A stretch of DNA of 33,289 nt. Origin: a virus. Lineage: Duplodnaviria; Caudoviricetes. Below, one piece after another: positions 1,915 to 9,270 of this stretch; positions within the stretch are counted from its first letter, which is position 1; each line of letters begins with the position of its first letter. Where the stretch lies: positions 1 through 33,289 of the IMG/VR virus record IMGVR_UViG_3300042431_000197, one strand, 5' to 3'. Under the pieces are notes generated by a model, which did not search any database, was not told the origin of the DNA, and was given only the letters and a program-made list of their open reading frames with translations. A program made the translations under genes and the position numbers.

Positions 1915-2775
1915 TTAAAATAATTCTGGTTGAGATATTCTAATATTAAGTCTTTTTTCTGCATATTTACATTGTTCTTCTGATATTTCACTTCCAATAT
2001 AATTTCTTTTTTCAATTATACAAGCATTTGCAGTTGTGCCGGTTCCCATAAAGCTATCATAAATCAAATCATTTTCTTTTGTATAAAGTAACAATAGCTT
2101 TCTAACTAATTCAGTTGAGTAGGTTGCCTTATTCAAATCATTGCTTCCATCATTGTTTGACGCTTCAATATAGTTATAAAAAACATCATAAAAATCTTGT
2201 CCCTTATTTGATGTAGTTGTTACCTTCTTGTTTGTGTTAAAAGTTAGGTATTCAGTTTTTCTAACAAACACAAATACAAATTCACAAATTCGTGTTAGTT
2301 TATTTTTACTTGTTGTGTTTGGTAAAGCGGTTGTTTTTTTCCAACTAATACAATCAGCAACAGTAAATTCAGTTCGTTTTATTATTTCAGCAATTAGCAA
2401 CCACATTGTTTCAACACTTTCGTTTCCGTATGAAATATTGTAAAGCACACAGCCATCTTTTTCTAAAATAGTATTATAGGCTTTAAATAATTCAATAGTC
2501 CAATCAATGTATTCATCACTTGATTTTGTGTCTAAATACTTATCGTATCGCTTATCTTGGCTATAAACACGAACACCTTTTACTATTTTGTTGCTCCAAT
2601 ATTCAATTCTACCACCAGTATTATAAGGCGGTGAAGTTATTACTGCATTTACTTTACCAGCTAATCTTTTCATAGTTAACAAGCAATCTTCATTATAAAT
2701 TTTGTTTATAAAATACGCACTATCGCTAACACTCGTTTGGCTCAATGCCTTATTTTCGTTTTTATCGTTTTTCAT
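1915..2775 (-). CDS. DNA amino-methyltransferase, beta-class N4-C/N6-A family (cassette 2)
   Basis: Catalytic motif IV TSPPY precedes SAM-binding motif I DSFMGTGTT..A and GSEIS; the first ~20 aa are encoded by attC2. ATG 2775 (GTG 2778). Confidence 0.92.
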   Translation of the reverse strand: MKNDKNENKALSQTSVSDSAYFINKIYNEDCLLTMKRLAGKVNAVITSPPYNTGGRIEYWSNKIVKGVRVYSQDKRYDKYLDTKSSDEYIDWTIELFKAYNTILEKDGCVLYNISYGNESVETMWLLIAEIIKRTEFTVADCISWKKTTALPNTTSKNKLTRICEFVFVFVRKTEYLTFNTNKKVTTTSNKGQDFYDVFYNYIEASNNDGSNDLNKATYSTELVRKLLLLYTKENDLIYDSFMGTGTTANACIIEKRNYIGSEISEEQCKYAEKRLNIRISQPELF

Positions 2776-2845
2776 CACGTTTATTTTTAATGATTAAATT
2801 TAGTTTTCATAACTCGGCACTAAGCCAAGCGAGGGGACGTTATGG
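2724..2845 (+). repeat. attC-like site 2
   Basis: CGCTAAC (2724-2730); arms CTCGTTTGGCTCAATGCC (2732-2749) and GGCACTAAGCCAAGCGAG (2816-2833) are 15/18 complementary; GTTATGG (2839-2845). Confidence 0.82.
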
Positions 2846-2851
2846 TTAATG

Positions 2852-3835
2852 CTACGTGAAGCATTCACAAGGAAATAAATCTTGTGTAGATTGTTTTAAA
2901 TAATGTTTTGCTGACTTCCAAAATTTATGACTTGATATGTGTTCATTTGCTGGAATACCTATTTCTTTCATTCTTTTAAAAGTCGGTTCAACTTCTTTTA
3001 AAAATCCAAAATTTCCAAATGAATGCCCTATTCTTTCCTCTGATAATTTAGCTCTTTCAAAAGTTTCATTATCTTCACAATATACAACGTACCAATGTTG
3101 TTGACCAGCTTTTAAACATCCTTTACAATTTGCGTGTTTCCAAACTTTATATGTTAAAGGTGGTTCAATACCAATTTCTTTAGTTGAGTTAATAGTTTTT
3201 TCTTTTCCGTCGTATTCTGTAATTTCTAAAAGATTGTGCTTTATAGCTTCTTCAATAACATCTAATGGTAATTTATGTAATTTAGATTTGTTAGCTTTGT
3301 TGTAGGTTTTTAAAAGTTCGTTAATTTTAAAATCATTATATTTTTTTATCAACTCAAAAGACCATAAAGCCAAAGGAAAATCTGTTTCAATTCCATCTTG
3401 AATAAGAATTGATTTTCTTCTTTCAACTCTATTTAATTCATCACTATCAAAACCATAATAACAGCAAACACTTTCTTTTTCTACTGATTTTAAATAATCA
3501 TAAAAAGGTTCTGTTTTTAAGGCATAAGTGCATAATATTTGTCTATTATGTGGGTTTACAAATGTTTTTCTTTCTTCACATACTTCAAATTGATTAGGAA
3601 TGTCATTTTCATTTTCAATTCCTTTTATGTTTGCAAAAGTTATCGGTAAACCTAAATAATCAGCAATTTCTTTTTTAAACCTTTTAATATCCGCATCTTC
3701 ATATCTTGGATTAATATTATGATTTAGTAAAATAACATTTTCTTTACCAAATAATTTAACCACTTCAATAGCAACTAAAGCAGATGAATGCCCTCCAGAG
3801 TAACAAACTATGTGTTTAGTATTTTTCATAAACAA
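2852..3835 (-). CDS. PP-loop (PAPS-reductase-like / adenine nucleotide alpha-hydrolase) protein with Cys cluster (cassette 3)
   Basis: N-terminal HIVCYSGGHSSA PP-loop; CTYALKTEP, YYGFDSDE..R, HANCKGCLKAG and a C-terminal CEC. Confidence 0.75.
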   Translation of the reverse strand: MFMKNTKHIVCYSGGHSSALVAIEVVKLFGKENVILLNHNINPRYEDADIKRFKKEIADYLGLPITFANIKGIENENDIPNQFEVCEERKTFVNPHNRQILCTYALKTEPFYDYLKSVEKESVCCYYGFDSDELNRVERRKSILIQDGIETDFPLALWSFELIKKYNDFKINELLKTYNKANKSKLHKLPLDVIEEAIKHNLLEITEYDGKEKTINSTKEIGIEPPLTYKVWKHANCKGCLKAGQQHWYVVYCEDNETFERAKLSEERIGHSFGNFGFLKEVEPTFKRMKEIGIPANEHISSHKFWKSAKHYLKQSTQDLFPCECFT

Positions 3836-4109
3836 CTTTTGTTTTAGGATTTAAACTTTCTAAATATTCAATAGCCCATTCTAATTTAGGATAAGACAAA
3901 TCGCATTCAGTTGAAAATGTATAAATACCATTTAAACATAATTCCTCATCTTTATAAAATTTCCATCCTTTAAATAATCCAAATATTCCATTATCAAAAT
4001 ATTGAGGATAAAATCTATTATCTTTTTCAATAATTCTGTTTTTGAAATCCGCACTAACCATAACACTCGTTTGGCTCAATGCCTTATTTTCGTTTTTATC
4101 GTTTTTCAT
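3816..4109 (-). CDS. Hypothetical protein (cassette 3), N-terminus encoded by attC3
   Basis: Starts MKNDKNENKALSQTSV, identical to the MTase N-terminus; overlaps the next gene. Confidence 0.75.
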   Translation of the reverse strand: MKNDKNENKALSQTSVMVSADFKNRIIEKDNRFYPQYFDNGIFGLFKGWKFYKDEELCLNGIYTFSTECDLSYPKLEWAIEYLESLNPKTKVVYEKY

Positions 4110-4179: not shown

Positions 4180-4180
4180 A

Positions 4181-4264
4181 AAATAAAACCCACATATCAA
4201 AAGGTCGTCGTCTTTATCAATGTGGGAATTTGTTAAAATTTTAAATGTAGCGACGACTCTACTG
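4181..4264 (-). ncRNA. Two-hairpin kissing-loop leader RNA, copy A
   Basis: Hairpin 1 GTAG-AGTCGTCG-CTAC (4262-4247); hairpin 2 CCCACAT..AAAG-ACGACGAC-CTTT..ATGTGGG (4226-4189), then a U-rich tract. Confidence 0.7.
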
Positions 4265-4267
4265 ATG

Positions 4268-4275
4268 CAAATATA
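4268..4275 (-). promoter_or_regulatory. Bacteroidota -7 promoter element TATATTTG
   Basis: TAnnTTTG consensus; the same TATATTTGCA precedes all three leader RNAs. Confidence 0.7.
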
Positions 4276-4280
4276 TAAAT

Positions 4281-4448
4281 TTATTTTAATTGTACCGCTT
4301 TATAATAATAATTTTTGTTTTTATTTAGTGTTTGGTATTCGTAAAATGTGATTTCTTTAATAAACTCTTTAGAAGTTTCTTTATGTATCGCAATTAGTTT
4401 TAATTTAGTGTTTGGGTCTAATGCGTAGGGTTGTTTATTTTTTACCAT
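4281..4448 (-). CDS. Hypothetical 55-aa protein (not in ORF track)
   Basis: MVKNKQPYALDPNTKLKLIAIHKETSKEF...; start overlaps the end of ninG and the ORF fills the gap. Confidence 0.55.
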   Translation of the reverse strand: MVKNKQPYALDPNTKLKLIAIHKETSKEFIKEITFYEYQTLNKNKNYYYKAVQLK

Positions 4449-5037
4449 ATTCTTTTATTTTAATATCATATTGTAATTTTTTAGCTATTAATTCTTCTTT
4501 AGTATATTTTTTCACTCGATTAATATCACAAATATTGTCTAAATTTGTGACATAATCTATTCCATAACGCTTAATTAAACCTTTTCGGAAATTTAATTCA
4601 TTACCATTCATAAATCTGTTACATTTTCTGCATTGTTTATGGCAATTATTTTCGTTAAATATCAATCCTGAATAAATTTCTGCTTTGTAGAAATGACCAC
4701 CATCAAATAAATCTGCGGTTGTAGTATCGCAACTTATACAAGGTTTATCGCTATCACGCAATCTTATCCACTTTTGAAACGATTTTCTTGCTTCTTGCTT
4801 ATATTCTCCTATTGTTTTAAGTTTTGCTCTTAAATCGCTTTTAAATGCTTTTGCTTTATCTGACTTAACTTTTAAGTTTATTTTATTAAAAACAACTTTT
4901 CCAGCATCTGAGTTAAATAAGAAATCAGATAAGCAGGAACTGCATAAACCAAACGTTCTATATAAAGTCATTTTTCCACAACCTTTAACCATTCGTGCCT
5001 TATTGATTCCTTTGCAGGGTTTTTCTTTTATATCCAT
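4435..5037 (-). CDS. ninG: NinG/Rap-like recombination endonuclease
   Basis: FQKWIRLRD..PCISC, DGGHF, FNENNCHKQCRKCN, and FRKGLIKRYG match the lambda NinG family pattern. Confidence 0.85.
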   Translation of the reverse strand: MDIKEKPCKGINKARMVKGCGKMTLYRTFGLCSSCLSDFLFNSDAGKVVFNKINLKVKSDKAKAFKSDLRAKLKTIGEYKQEARKSFQKWIRLRDSDKPCISCDTTTADLFDGGHFYKAEIYSGLIFNENNCHKQCRKCNRFMNGNELNFRKGLIKRYGIDYVTNLDNICDINRVKKYTKEELIAKKLQYDIKIKEYGKK

Positions 5038-5879
5038 TCTGTATTTATATTATTATTATCTGTTTCGTATGGCAACCAATCTTTGTTTACATCAAAATTA
5101 ATAGGCTCAAAAGGTATATTTCTTGAGTATTCACATTTTGCAGTTGTTATATTATCGTTTTTTTCTATAAATACAACAGTTTCAGCTTTCTTTAATACAC
5201 TACTTCCAACGTGTCCTACTGGTTTTGATGTTCCAAAATTCTTATGCAATATTCCTGTGCAGTGCATATTACCTTTTGCAGTCCATTGTAGCAATTTTTC
5301 AGTTAAACCAGTTGATTGTTCTAAACTATTAAAGTCTGTTACCAAATCTACATATCCATCAATCGACATTAAACCAATATTATTTTTAAACTCGCTTTCG
5401 TAAACTATCCAATCAATAAAATCAAATCGTTCTTTTGGTGTGTATTGTCTTAAGCAAAATGTTTTATAAAATTCATAGTTTCCACCTATCATTTCTAAAA
5501 CTCTTCTTTGAACTCTTTGCGTATGAAAAGATGATTGTTCTGTATCGAACGAAATTACAAATTTATTTTGAGTATTATGCCCTTTTATTGATGGATTTAA
5601 TATGTTTGATTTACCACCAATATAACCAGCTTCAATCATAGATTTAAAAAATGTTTTTCTTGACTTTGATGCTCCTACTATACAACTGAAATCTCCATAA
5701 CTTCCAAATGGTATTGGATACATTGTGTTTTTATATTCACTTTCACGAATTGAAATAGCTATTGGTTGTTGTTTAATTTCTTCGCTTGGGTCAATTAAAG
5801 CTTCTTTAAATATTTTACTAAAATCAATTTCATTTAAAACTATTTCAGTTGTTTCTGGTATTATAATTTTTTCAAACAT
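5028..5879 (-). CDS. RecA-like P-loop ATPase, putative replicative helicase domain
   Basis: Variant Walker A IVGASKSRKT, FDTEQ, Walker B-like MSIDG, ILHKN..GHVGS; located in the replication module. Confidence 0.7.
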   Translation of the reverse strand: MFEKIIIPETTEIVLNEIDFSKIFKEALIDPSEEIKQQPIAISIRESEYKNTMYPIPFGSYGDFSCIVGASKSRKTFFKSMIEAGYIGGKSNILNPSIKGHNTQNKFVISFDTEQSSFHTQRVQRRVLEMIGGNYEFYKTFCLRQYTPKERFDFIDWIVYESEFKNNIGLMSIDGYVDLVTDFNSLEQSTGLTEKLLQWTAKGNMHCTGILHKNFGTSKPVGHVGSSVLKKAETVVFIEKNDNITTAKCEYSRNIPFEPINFDVNKDWLPYETDNNNINTEWI

Positions 5880-6378
5880 TTTTATAAGTATTTAACGCAA
5901 GTGTTATTGTAGCGTTTAAGTTATTGTAAATATTATCTTCACTCCAAAGGTCGCAAACTTCTAAAAACTCATTTGCATCTATTTTATTGCAAATATCGGT
6001 ATTATATTTAAAATTTTCTTTTAAGTCAAATTTTGACATCATACTCCAAGTATCTTTTAAACCTTTGTTTTCAAAATAATTTTTTATCTCTAATACATTT
6101 GCCTCTTTTCTAAACTCGTTGTATAAACCATCTAAAGGCATTTTAAGTATTTTATTTACATTAGATTGTGCAAGGTCAAAATTTCTTACTATTCGCATTT
6201 GAGTAATAAAATTCATAATGTATAATTTTGCAAATAGTTTGTTTTCTTGTACTTCGGTTTTGTTTACGTTGTTTATAAATTCAATTATAGAATTTAAAGC
6301 ATCGGCATCAGTTCCGTTTGGTTTATTTTGTTTTGATATTGTAAAACCTAATCTTTTAATTGCATCTGATATTTTCAT
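5872..6378 (-). CDS. Hypothetical protein (replication module)
   Basis: 168-aa ORF overlapping both neighbours. Confidence 0.75.
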   Translation of the reverse strand: MKISDAIKRLGFTISKQNKPNGTDADALNSIIEFINNVNKTEVQENKLFAKLYIMNFITQMRIVRNFDLAQSNVNKILKMPLDGLYNEFRKEANVLEIKNYFENKGLKDTWSMMSKFDLKENFKYNTDICNKIDANEFLEVCDLWSEDNIYNNLNATITLALNTYKNV

Positions 6379-6638
6379 AACTTATCAATTTTAGGCTCTG
6401 TATAACATCTTATCCAATAACAAACTACTTGAGTTGTTAATTTATAATTAACTCCATATTTTCCAAGAGAACCAAGTCTAATAGCTTCAATTACTTCTTC
6501 TATTTTTCTTTTACCAAATTCATTTTTAATATCATTAAACATTTTTTCAACGTTTGGTATATCGCTTTCTAATCTTTCAGAAGCTATTAAAAGCATTGTT
6601 TTTAATTTAAAGCTCTGGGAATTGTTTTCGCATTTCAT
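6375..6638 (-). CDS. Hypothetical protein, possible helicase-loader/replisome accessory
   Basis: 87-aa ORF directly downstream of the initiator; function inferred from position only. Confidence 0.6.
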   Translation of the reverse strand: MKCENNSQSFKLKTMLLIASERLESDIPNVEKMFNDIKNEFGKRKIEEVIEAIRLGSLGKYGVNYKLTTQVVCYWIRCYTEPKIDKL

Positions 6639-7299
6639 CTATATCGTATTTTTTTGAGTTATTATTATTTTTAGTTTGTTGGTTTAACCATCTTACAAAG
6701 TGAGTTGTAAATTCTTTTTTTTGTTGTTTAATATCTAATTTTAGATTTAAGTCATTTTTAAATATTAGTAAATTATCTTTTATTTCTTCAATATTAAATT
6801 TTGGTTGGTTTTGCATAGCACAAGTTTCTAACCAAGATTCAGAATTTATTAATTCATTAAAATATAAATCATTATTATTTGTTATATTGTTTATTGGTAT
6901 TGTTGTATCTTGTTTATTTATACTATCAATGCTTTGTATAGTGCTTTCACTTTGCTTTGTACTATGCTTTATCAATGCTTTATCAAGTGCTTTGTCAAGT
7001 GCGTTATTAAAATTTGATATAGCAACTATGTTACTTGAGTATTGATTTTTTGACCTTTCAATTATATCTATTAATCCAAAATCAACTAAATCATTCAAAG
7101 TGGTTATGTATGTATTATAACTTCTAATACCAATAGCATCCTTTACCATTGTAGTAGGTAAACCAAATTTATATTTCCAACCTAAACGATTGCAATGTTC
7201 AACTATAAAAAGATATAATGCACAATGATTAGGTTTAATTTTTTCAGGGTTTTCAAAGGCGTAATCCCAAAATGCTCGTGTTAATTTAAAGTAATCCAT
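6607..7299 (-). CDS. Phage replication initiator (winged-helix N-terminus)
   Basis: MDYFKLTRAFWD...ALYLFIVEHCNRLGW...YITTLNDLVDFGLI, a low-complexity repeat-containing linker and C-terminal HFVRWL; ATG 7299 follows leader RNA B. Confidence 0.75.
   Translation of the reverse strand: MDYFKLTRAFWDYAFENPEKIKPNHCALYLFIVEHCNRLGWKYKFGLPTTMVKDAIGIRSYNTYITTLNDLVDFGLIDIIERSKNQYSSNIVAISNFNNALDKALDKALIKHSTKQSESTIQSIDSINKQDTTIPINNITNNNDLYFNELINSESWLETCAMQNQPKFNIEEIKDNLLIFKNDLNLKLDIKQQKKEFTTHFVRWLNQQTKNNNNSKKYDIDEMRKQFPEL
6930..7005. repeat. Iteron-like repeats (candidate replication origin)
   Basis: TGCTTT at 6930, 6942, 6953, 6965, 6976, 6988 and TGCGTT at 7000; 11-12 bp period, next to an AT-rich tract. 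Confidence 0.65.
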
Positions 7300-7306
7300 A
7301 GTGAGT

Positions 7307-7393
7307 AAAAAAATTAATGCCCTACTACAAGCGGTGGAAGTCGCAAGTAATAAGGCATTTGTAATATTTTTATAAGTAGCTTCCACTCTACAT
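7307..7393 (-). ncRNA. Two-hairpin kissing-loop leader RNA, copy B
   Basis: Hairpin 1 GTAG-AGTGGAAG-CTAC (7391-7376); hairpin 2 AATGCCTTATTACTTGCG-ACTTCCAC-CGCTTGTAGTAGGGCATT (7359-7316), then a U tract. Confidence 0.75.
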
Positions 7394-7396
7394 TTG

Positions 7397-7404
7397 CAAA
7401 TATA
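7397..7404 (-). promoter_or_regulatory. Bacteroidota -7 promoter element TATATTTG
   Basis: TAnnTTTG consensus, intergenic. Confidence 0.7.
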
Positions 7405-7430
7405 ATAATTATTTCAATATAAAAAACATT

Positions 7431-7871
7431 TTAATCAAAATTTAATAAATTTTCTTCATTCGGACTTGGAATATCTATTCCTAAAAATTCCGCTGCCCAT
7501 TTTTGTATTTCTAAAATATACTCACAAAATTGTGTAGTAGTCATTTCTGAACTCGTTAAACGCTCGTTTATACATTCGCCTGTGTCAATATTAATTATTT
7601 CATTTGTTGGCGCAAATAAAGGCAAAAGTATATTATAATGAATATTATCATTACTTCTTAATTCTCCTGTTGCATCTAATAAACCTTTTTGTATTAAAGG
7701 TAAAACCAATCCCCAATAATATCGATTTTGATTGTTAGAACGATTCTTTTTAGGCTTTGAAAAAGTAATTACAACGTCTTTATCATTAAACGATTTTATG
7801 GCGTTTAAAACAAGGTTTCTGTTTCTTTTAAATATTCCGTTAACGATTGACGTTGTAATTTCAATTTTCAT
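7431..7871 (-). CDS. NinB-like protein
   Basis: RSNNQNRYYWG and TSSEMTTTQFCEYILEIQKWAAE.LGI.IP motifs. Confidence 0.7.
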   Translation of the reverse strand: MKIEITTSIVNGIFKRNRNLVLNAIKSFNDKDVVITFSKPKKNRSNNQNRYYWGLVLPLIQKGLLDATGELRSNDNIHYNILLPLFAPTNEIINIDTGECINERLTSSEMTTTQFCEYILEIQKWAAEFLGIDIPSPNEENLLNFD

Positions 7872-7874
7872 AAT

Positions 7875-8168
7875 TTAGAAAGGTAGCGAATCAGTATCTG
7901 GAATATCCTCTGCTGTTACTTCTTCAACAATTTGCTCACTTTCTTTTAGATTACCAAAGTAAAATTTATCCTCTTTTTGTGCGCCTTTGAAATTAGATTG
8001 AAACGATGCTACGTTTCCGTATTTATCCAATTCATCATTTACCCAAACTCTAACGTTTAAATAAATTTTTCCATTCTCATTTTTGGTAAATGCTTTATTA
8101 CCTGTTTTCGCTTGTTCTAACAATTTGCTAAAATCAATGCTTCCGTAAAATGAAGTTTTAACTCCCAT
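7875..8168 (-). CDS. Putative single-stranded DNA-binding protein
   Basis: Small beta-rich protein with an acidic tail ending DSLPF, adjacent to ERF. Confidence 0.6.
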   Translation of the reverse strand: MGVKTSFYGSIDFSKLLEQAKTGNKAFTKNENGKIYLNVRVWVNDELDKYGNVASFQSNFKGAQKEDKFYFGNLKESEQIVEEVTAEDIPDTDSLPF

Positions 8169-8179
8169 AATAAATAAAA

Positions 8180-8674
8180 TTAAAGATTAATAAATTCTTG
8201 TTCTTGTTGTTTTGTAGTTGTGTATTTAGTTTTAATTTGTTCCAATGAAAAGCCTCCTTGTTTTGCTTTAATTAAAATTTCTGTGGTTGCATTTGGTTTT
8301 GATTGCACTGCTTTTTGCCCATCATCATCATCTGCTCCAACGCAAACAAATGATTGTAAAGAATATCGACGTGCATAACTTATTCCGCTTCCTTGAGCTT
8401 GTGCATCATTTACTTTGTTGTAGATAATTTCTGTTAATGATTCCATTAACTCGCCTGATTCGTGAAGTAAAATAGTTTTAACAAAGTTTTTATTATCTAC
8501 GTGAACTATTGGTTGTAATACGCTTATTCCGTTGGCGTTAAGAATTGGAATAACTGCTTCTCGAATTGAGTTTAAATCAGCATATTTTGACTTAAAGAAT
8601 GGATTTGTTGAGCCTTTTTTTGGATTGCTCATTTCTGATTGTGCTTTTAATAAAGCGGTTGCAATTTGTTTCAT
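8180..8674 (-). CDS. erf: ERF-family single-strand annealing recombinase
   Basis: NPFFKSKYADL and GSGISYARRYSL...GADDDDG signature motifs. Confidence 0.9.
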   Translation of the reverse strand: MKQIATALLKAQSEMSNPKKGSTNPFFKSKYADLNSIREAVIPILNANGISVLQPIVHVDNKNFVKTILLHESGELMESLTEIIYNKVNDAQAQGSGISYARRYSLQSFVCVGADDDDGQKAVQSKPNATTEILIKAKQGGFSLEQIKTKYTTTKQQEQEFINL

Positions 8675-8717
8675 AAGATAAGATATTTAATTGTTTAAGA
8701 TTTGTAAATATAATAAT

Positions 8718-9155
8718 TTAAAACGATATAGCCAAACTCGACTTTCTCGGTGTTGTTGAAACTTTAGGCACATCGTTTCCGTAAGCATCAATTACGTCTT
8801 GTTTAAGAGCAAGTTTTAATAATTCCGCCCTTGCATCTAAGTCAGCTTTTAATTGCGTGTAAATCGCATCATCTGAATAGTTAATAGTATCGCCTCCGCT
8901 TCTAAATGTTCCTTTCAATCCAAACTCTTCAAAGTTTTCTTGTGGTATTACTTTCATTAATTCTGAATTAATAACATCTAAAGCTTCGACCATTCTTTTG
9001 GCTTGTGCTAATAATTCGTATTTATTAACTTCTCCAGCTTCTAATAAATCAGTAATAAATTTTTTACTACTTAATTGAATTTCTTTTTTGTTAGGTAAGA
9101 AATTTTGCGTTTCTATTTCCTGTTGACGCATTAATTGAAATAAATCTTTACTCAT
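8718..9155 (-). CDS. Hypothetical protein (first gene of recombination module)
   Basis: 145-aa ORF; ATG 16 nt after leader RNA C. Confidence 0.8.
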   Translation of the reverse strand: MSKDLFQLMRQQEIETQNFLPNKKEIQLSSKKFITDLLEAGEVNKYELLAQAKRMVEALDVINSELMKVIPQENFEEFGLKGTFRSGGDTINYSDDAIYTQLKADLDARAELLKLALKQDVIDAYGNDVPKVSTTPRKSSLAISF

Positions 9156-9161
9156 AATTTT

Positions 9162-9256
9162 AAAAAATAAACCTCTTTTAAAAAACTTAATCGGTCAGAA
9201 TTAAGCATTAAAAGAGGCGTTATTAATTTTGTCAAAGTTCCTGACCGAACTTTTTA
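9162..9256 (-). ncRNA. Two-hairpin kissing-loop leader RNA, copy C
   Basis: Hairpin 1 AAAGTT-CGGTCAGG-AACTTT (9253-9234); hairpin 2 CCTCTTTTAA..CTTAAT-TCTGACCG-ATTAAG..TTAAAAGAGG (9217-9172), then a U tract. Confidence 0.72.
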
Positions 9257-9262
9257 TTTATG

Positions 9263-9270
9263 CAAATATA
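9263..9270 (-). promoter_or_regulatory. Bacteroidota -7 promoter element TATATTTG
   Basis: TAnnTTTG consensus, intergenic. Confidence 0.7.

Follow-up and report, generated by a model that had tools for sequence, protein, structure and literature searches.

Three RNA elements, here called A, B, and C, are encoded on the minus strand of a 33,289-base stretch of DNA that comprises the entire virus record IMGVR_UViG_3300042431_000197 (Duplodnaviria; Caudoviricetes; G+C 29%) and is referred to below as the window. Each follows a promoter box and combines a short first hairpin (P1), a linker, a long second hairpin (P2) and a U-rich tract (U-tract), and a sequence in the loop of P1, the guide, is complementary to the loop of P2. 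Covariation between homologous copies indicates that the elements represent a real RNA family at the middle-gene promoters of phages, and suggests that guide and loop pair in a kissing helix. The mode of action that we favor, with a probability of about 0.55, is that of an attenuator that needs no ligand: the kiss between the loops would antagonize termination, similar to the working proposed for the guanidine-IV riboswitch, and the element likely controls the amount of transcription that passes on into the downstream recombination, replication, and accessory genes.

The coordinates, strand and order of the three elements had been given in an earlier note on this DNA and were confirmed in full. 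In A and B, a P1 of 4 base pairs (bp) with an 8-nucleotide (nt) loop, composed of an A and the 7-nt guide, is followed by an AT-rich linker of ~20 nt, an interrupted P2, whose 8-nt loop consists of an A and the exact complement of the guide, and the U-tract. The loops of C fold as 6 nt (GGTCAG/CTGACC), and the seventh pair is in competition with those that close them, so that the 7-bp loop pairing and the 8-nt P2 loop described in the earlier note for all three elements hold for A and B, while C has 6 bp with a competing seventh and a 6-nt loop; homologues of C keep 6–8 nt of guide–loop complementarity. Since the sigma-A box of Bacteroidota occupies positions -12 to -5 (PMC9723704), transcription is predicted to start (+1) at or just before the first hairpin. 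The first ATG after A, at 4109, lies ~80 nt beyond P2, and this distance suits transcriptional control.

The complementarity was assessed with an unbiased scan, in which only the promoter tail and P1 were fixed and five loop positions were left free, and which yielded 121 loci; 99 distinct matches with sufficient flanking sequence were kept, 55 of them promoter-adjacent and 44 not. An exact 7-nt complement was present 25–60 nt downstream in 54 of the 55 promoter-adjacent matches, representing nine codes (guide–loop sequences), versus none of the 44 look-alikes lacking a promoter and none of 2418 non-cognate pairings, and the sole promoter-adjacent miss (L036) is a locus without P2. Homologues therefore retain the loop complementarity, the loss of which the earlier note had named as speaking against its proposal. 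When P2 was detected blind to the guide, 106 of 453 hairpins showed complementarity of at least 7 nt, compared with ~7 after swapping, and among loci fetched by protein alone at least 7 nt of loop–leader complementarity was found for 60 of 465 promoter-linked strong hairpins, compared with ~9 from swaps. In an alignment of 44 A/B-type copies, which were selected for complementarity, two-sided changes occur in all seven kiss pairs, in all three inner pairs of P2 and in three of the four P1 pairs, and the covariation of loops and stems that had been noticed within the window is thereby borne out. The cells of this alignment are paired in 99.8% of cases, as opposed to 25–63% when it is slid, the kissing helix contains Watson–Crick pairs only, and the consensus returned by RNAalifold is the kissing helix alone.

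The family is large, as 196 detector calls corresponded to 139 distinct elements, four of which were dropped for a weak tail or a long linker, and the 135 distinct copies kept carry 54 codes on 35 scaffold clusters that share little sequence; the detector misses some copies, since L219, L220, L244, L247, L257, and L263 were found by eye. A cluster of 13 members has no P1 and presents a single-stranded guide of 7–9 nt at or next to the predicted +1. The first hairpin is dispensable, and the two-hairpin form is therefore not the defining one, as the earlier note had taken it to be. What is kept is the geometry, with the guide at the 5′ end, a spacing of 21–31 nt up to the base of P2, arms of ~14–21 nt in P2, and then the U-tract. 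Among 169 pairs whose downstream DNA is homologous, the scaffold has been replaced in 43, window element B versus L160 being one of them, which points to a generic device, and because P1 is optional and unrelated scaffolds interchange before the same gene, it appears to be the geometry that matters, not the letters. The downstream genes are mutually unrelated and encode NUMOD4-HNH, GIY-YIG, helicase, primase, methylase, DUF6291, and unknown proteins (43 proteins scanned).

The phage is of the Flavobacterium type and the design is common in Bacteroidota phages. Seven cultured Bacteroidota phages were examined, five of them partially, and six carry it; it was found in hattifnatt9-1 (three copies), Danklef_1, Harreka_1, and 11b, and by eye in phi19:1 and elemoA; the 21 kilobases examined of phi46:1 contained no element. 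Matches to element A with 84% identity occur in 34 records of cultured Flavobacterium phages, and blastn searches with B and C against cultured phages gave no match over most of the query. Among the chromosomes of one host family, model R1 matched 1 of 150 genomes (25 candidates scored per genome; weak), and this sole match is a contig already in the element set, while a pattern search of genome contigs yielded seven stretches, with the element present in L176 and L181.

Between promoter and first gene, the elements place a stable hairpin and a U-tract, as is the case in attenuators based on intrinsic terminators. The 8 nt following P2 contain a mean of 5.8 T (n = 80), versus 2.3 at matched positions in 23 element-free A-rich leaders, and the T-run yields to A after ~11 nt. 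In 120 of 135 copies, the sense strand gives the better fold of P2, and an ATG follows P2 at a distance of 8–22 nt in 77 of 95 elements. Of 97 distinct sites that combine a promoter, a terminator-like hairpin, and an ATG, 92 have a guide of at least 6 nt, many of these loci being pattern-selected. A classical antiterminator was not found, as the duplex of the leader with the 3′ arm of P2 (-5.2 kcal/mol) equals that of swapped controls, nor is a leader peptide supported, with a leader open reading frame in 14 of 135 copies versus 23 when shuffled.

In the proposed mechanism, P2 and its U-tract would stop RNA polymerase, and the pairing of guide and loop would hinder closure of the hairpin. The guide, being made first at or near +1, would catch the P2 loop as it emerges from the polymerase, whereupon the linker of ~20 nt would have to span the kissed stack, putting strain on the base of P2, and the race of kissing versus zipping would set the fraction of read-through, with neither ligand nor strand exchange. 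Strong host-type promoters could in this way be throttled ahead of recombination, replication, and nuclease genes, and elongation speed, Mg2+, temperature, or an RNA in trans are candidate inputs that may shift the race. For guanidine-IV, it has been proposed that kissing of the hairpins pulls the linker taut and thereby keeps the outer pairs of the terminator from forming (PMC7736828), and the kissing loop was reported to compete with the growth of P2 and to raise read-through (PMC11611296). The earlier note had offered attenuators or independent small RNAs of ~90 nt, and of these the attenuator appears to fit best, while the small RNA is weakened by the start codon that closely follows P2 in most elements.

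Several observations weigh against such an attenuator. The three P2s of the window escape a strict short-stem terminator scan, because their stems are interrupted. B-type U-tracts are weak; those that precede replication initiators average 4.5 T in 8 nt (n = 13), compared with 6.4 T in 8 nt for those ahead of nucleases (n = 23), a contrast that is confounded by descent. Because U-tract and translation initiation region overlap, P2 may act on ribosomes. The same genes are also found behind a short-leader promoter without an element (L131, L149, L152, L157, L159), and the gene behind C likewise occurs with a bare promoter. Linker length does not correlate positively with the length of the stack (rho -0.35, a value that in part reflects how the quantities were defined). 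Furthermore, the direction assumed for the effect is that of guanidine-IV and could be opposite here, and a terminator with a constitutive antidote needs an input.

A different explanation is that of a post-transcriptional leader, which would rarely terminate and instead shield the 5′ end from decay, limit ribosome loading through P2, or both. It would agree with the position of the first paired base, which in 80 of 135 copies, including the P1-less class, is the predicted +1 or +2, with the spacing between P2 and ATG, and with the weak U-tracts of the B type. We nevertheless consider this unlikely, since the U-tract replaces the A-rich initiation region of the control leaders, A as well as L045, L068, and L092 have no ATG near P2, leader reading frames are lacking, and the swapping of scaffolds argues against a gene-specific translational operator.

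According to a further explanation, which is rather unlikely, the released RNA of ~80–90 nt is itself active, either as a stable small RNA or as a code-specific trans regulator whose free loop would capture the guides of new transcripts and so shut off its own operon, as in the feedback exerted by the CI RNA of phage P4. Promoter and terminator do delimit a discrete RNA, and in guanidine-IV the kiss weakens when the terminator is completed (PMC11611296), which would free the loop. Cross-pairing of at least 6 nt within a locus was seen in 0 of 80 ordered pairs, versus 7.3% between loci, a comparison confounded by descent, as co-resident elements mostly differ in scaffold. Of seven same-scaffold pairs that each share a contig (50 virus loci searched whole), six differ in code (G165, G179, G183, L227, L199, L219) and one shares an identical code (L007/L047), where about two identical pairs of seven are expected from the code frequencies of the largest cluster, so that six differing pairs are not beyond chance. 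The orthogonality of the codes, which the earlier note had proposed, is therefore not supported as a selected property. Nor is it clear that the code is under diversifying selection, given that on unbiased pairs it diverges by 8.5%, versus 6.6% for stems and 11.4% for the linker; an apparently fast evolution of the code (6.9% versus 3.0% for stems) was rejected as an artefact of pair choice, as it was largely gone with pairs chosen by downstream DNA. There is also no sign of a third target site, with a 6-mer of the guide recurring downstream in 9 of 135 copies and one of the loop in 2 of 135, nor of an excess of antisense promoters (6 of 135 versus 6.3%), and the layout of the P1 C4 and P4 CI RNAs, of which the three elements had been reminiscent, was consequently not recovered. 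As an observation apart, L356 (G166:C1:160-330) carries the mirror image of code B, with the guide CTTCCAC and the loop GTGGAAG.

Trans action of the codes could also underlie a bar-coded, protein-free timer, which strikes us as quite improbable. Early in infection, the nascent leader would kiss its own terminator loop and allow read-through, whereas later, when terminated leaders have accumulated, the freed loop would capture the guides of same-code transcripts and turn the operon off. If true, replication, recombination, and nuclease genes would use a 7-letter RNA code to sense how many copies of themselves are present, or that a relative is co-infecting.

It is very improbable that the fold binds RNA polymerase and processively suppresses downstream terminators in the manner of the put RNAs of phage HK022. 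The putL RNA is a two-stem RNA of ~70 nt just downstream of a phage early promoter (PMC9378689), and thus resembles the element in fold and position. However, the two put RNAs, putL and putR, share sequence (PMC9378689), while the 35 scaffold clusters share little, P1 can be absent, and P2 has its own U-tract; put RNAs act at distant terminators, and neither a loop–loop code nor a U-tract of their own is described in the available portion of that paper. On the minus strand downstream of 9270, only a single, weak terminator was called. A DNA-level structure, such as a single-strand origin or a recombination hairpin, would agree with the location of elements beside replication genes and with a kiss made of Watson–Crick pairs only, yet it is hardly credible in view of the fixed spacing to promoter and start codon, the strand-specific U-tract, and the folding advantage of the sense strand (calculated with RNA parameters).

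Among the sources searched, the element is uncatalogued. An Rfam search of the whole window, which the earlier note had suggested, returned no match at E ≤ 1, and narrow Rfam scans of A, B, and C together with 20 homologue loci gave sub-threshold matches only. Large catalogues of candidate RNAs from phages and microbiomes may list it. No description of the element was found in the literature searched, although candidate catalogues such as the supplement of PMC5737381 could include it.

By inference the element is guanidine-IV-like, but it is not a member of that family. The guanidine-IV riboswitch (GGAM-1/mepA) also lies in cis before genes and pairs the loop of a 5′ hairpin with the loop of its own terminator, and in the available portions of the reports it likewise uses no strand-exchange antiterminator (PMC7736828; PMC11611296). 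Its ligand pocket is conserved, whereas here all seven kiss pairs vary, with 54 codes including the mirrored one, and P1 is optional; and where guanidine-IV controls exporter genes of the sugE/mepA type, the present element precedes DNA-metabolism genes in phages of Bacteroidota hosts, with no exporter among the 43 proteins scanned. With attenuators in general it shares hairpin and U-tract, but neither a mutually exclusive antiterminator helix nor a leader peptide.

The closest candidate in Rfam, the DUF805 RNA (RF03081), was rejected, as element B scored 12.8 bits against a gathering threshold of 51.1; the best score elsewhere in the phage genome was 15.6 bits, and no DUF805 match was obtained in the 20 homologue loci. 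Like the element, DUF805 RNAs are Bacteroidota 5′ leaders with a 4-bp hairpin (GUGG-AG..CCAC), which resembles P1 of A and B, and an A-rich linker. The 22 true copies differ by conserved CCGAAAA and GAGUAGG motifs, which are absent from A, B, and C, and by a short second hairpin instead of a long U-tailed one; a loop match of at least 6 nt occurs in none of them and an adjacent TAnnTTTG in one. In one host family, 21 of 121 genomes contain DUF805 RNAs that score at or above the cut-off (L275–L305), and it is their first hairpin (GTGGAG...CCAC) that recalls P1.

The C4 RNA of phage P1 and the CI RNA of phage P4 carry short loop codes in phage leaders and act as processed trans RNAs with several target sites, while here guide and loop occur once each, ~45 nt apart, and no Rfam match to C4 was found. 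C4 is listed in Table 1 of PMC2864571. In phage T4, a weak terminator (30–50%) near the 5′ end of the homing-endonuclease gene mobE limits expression (PMC2790892), which is reminiscent of the many copies that precede HNH or GIY-YIG genes, but mobE has no promoter, the terminator is located within its reading frame, and no loop pairing is described in the available part of the report. The zipper-type attenuator cATT of pLS20 is likewise a leader attenuator before a mobile-element operon; it differs by strand exchange into an antiterminator within a 456-nt leader (PMC13401043), whereas no leader–arm complementarity above control was found here.

The elements would thus represent a widespread phage gene-control element without a family match in the Rfam searches made. 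If the attenuator reading is true, it would be a natural ligand-free case of the loop-on-terminator antitermination proposed for guanidine-IV, to our knowledge the first one known. It could account for the way in which Bacteroidota phages throttle or time the middle genes that they express from host-type promoters, and terminator switches programmable through 7 nt would become available. The geometry can be tested on dozens of variants that occur naturally, and cultured phage–host pairs carry the element, which makes it directly testable.

The features of the three elements and the genes behind them are collected in Table 1. The genes of the window lie on the minus strand and comprise terminase, portal, tail, and lysis genes, followed by a block with ERF, NinB, NinG, methyltransferase, and sigma-factor-like genes; no integrase was found among 52 window proteins scanned. 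The earlier note had placed the elements ahead of a recombination operon, which indeed follows C, and of a replication initiator behind B, which is a putative assignment, as the 230-aa protein has a weak DUF7833 domain that also occurs in DUF6291 proteins, and the PHROG matches of the latter include a primosomal protein and a replisome organizer.

Table 1. Positions of the elements and of the genes that follow them in the window.
Feature	Position	Strand	Remarks
A, -7 box TATATTTG	4268..4275	-	Bacteroidota sigma-A box; predicted +1 at 4263
A, P1 GTAG/CTAC, loop A-GTCGTCG	4247..4262	-	guide 4257-4251
A, P2, symmetric UGAU/UGAU internal loop	4189..4226	-	loop A-CGACGAC (4210-4204); -11.5 kcal/mol
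A, U-tract	4180..4188	-	presumed attC-like palindrome (4176-4061) directly after
B, -7 box TATATTTG	7397..7404	-	predicted +1 at 7392
B, P1 GTAG/CTAC, loop A-GTGGAAG	7376..7391	-	guide 7386-7380
B, P2, G-U pairs and 2x2 U loop	7319..7356	-	loop A-CTTCCAC (7340-7334); -21.1 kcal/mol
B, U-tract	7307..7313	-	separated from the stem, a weaker form of terminator; ATG 7299
C, -7 box TATATTTG	9263..9270	-	predicted +1 at 9258
C, P1 AAAGTTC/GAACTTT	9234..9253	-	guide (C)GGTCAG 9247-9241
C, P2, long interrupted terminator-like hairpin	9172..9218	-	loop CTGACC(G) 9198-9192; -17.9 kcal/mol
C, U-tract	9162..9171	-	ATG of next gene 9155
Operon behind C	7431..9155	-	145-aa unknown, ERF ssDNA-annealing protein (8180-8674), 97-aa unknown, NinB-like (7431-7871)
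Operon behind B	4435..7299	-	230-aa putative replication initiator (DUF7833), three unknowns, NinG
Genes behind A	1915..4109	-	97-aa unknown, PAPS-reductase-like protein, DNA methyltransferase

The early/middle arm contains four intergenic minus-strand TATATTTG sites, three of which carry an element. The most upstream one (12749, minus) has a short plain A-rich leader without an element and is probably the early promoter; directly above it, a canonical terminator (12857-12828, minus) ends the lysis operon. A sigma-70 region 2 protein (205-690, minus), encoded where the middle block ends, is a candidate late-gene sigma factor. Promoter B (7389-7404) is near-palindromic and overlaps a plus-strand TACATTTG box, which would fire antisense to ninB and is absent from most homologues. 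An open frame on the minus strand (7386-7299) opens with the GTG in guide B, continues across P2 and shares the reading frame of the 230-aa gene; by eye it is not kept in L005 and L046, and it is not general in the family.

Three long imperfect palindromes with TAAC...GTTA ends, which we take to be attC-like, are located at 4176-4061, 2842-2727, and 1876-1759 (minus). Those at 4176-4061 and 2842-2727 are nearly identical to one another, and each includes the start of the gene that follows (MKNDKNENKALSQTSV). The palindrome at 4176-4061 directly follows the U-tract of A, at a place where many relatives have an HNH gene, and L045, L068, and L092 likewise carry a palindrome-type cassette after the element. 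Upstream of a primase match, L225, L227, L230, L231, L235, and L237 have inverted repeats, of either the CATAGCAAACAT or the GTGGAC/GTCCAC type, together with runs of C and G, presumably origin-like. In L011, L149, L175, L192, and L205, a second TAnnTTTG box lies ~26–29 nt upstream of the element promoter, possibly forming tandem promoters.

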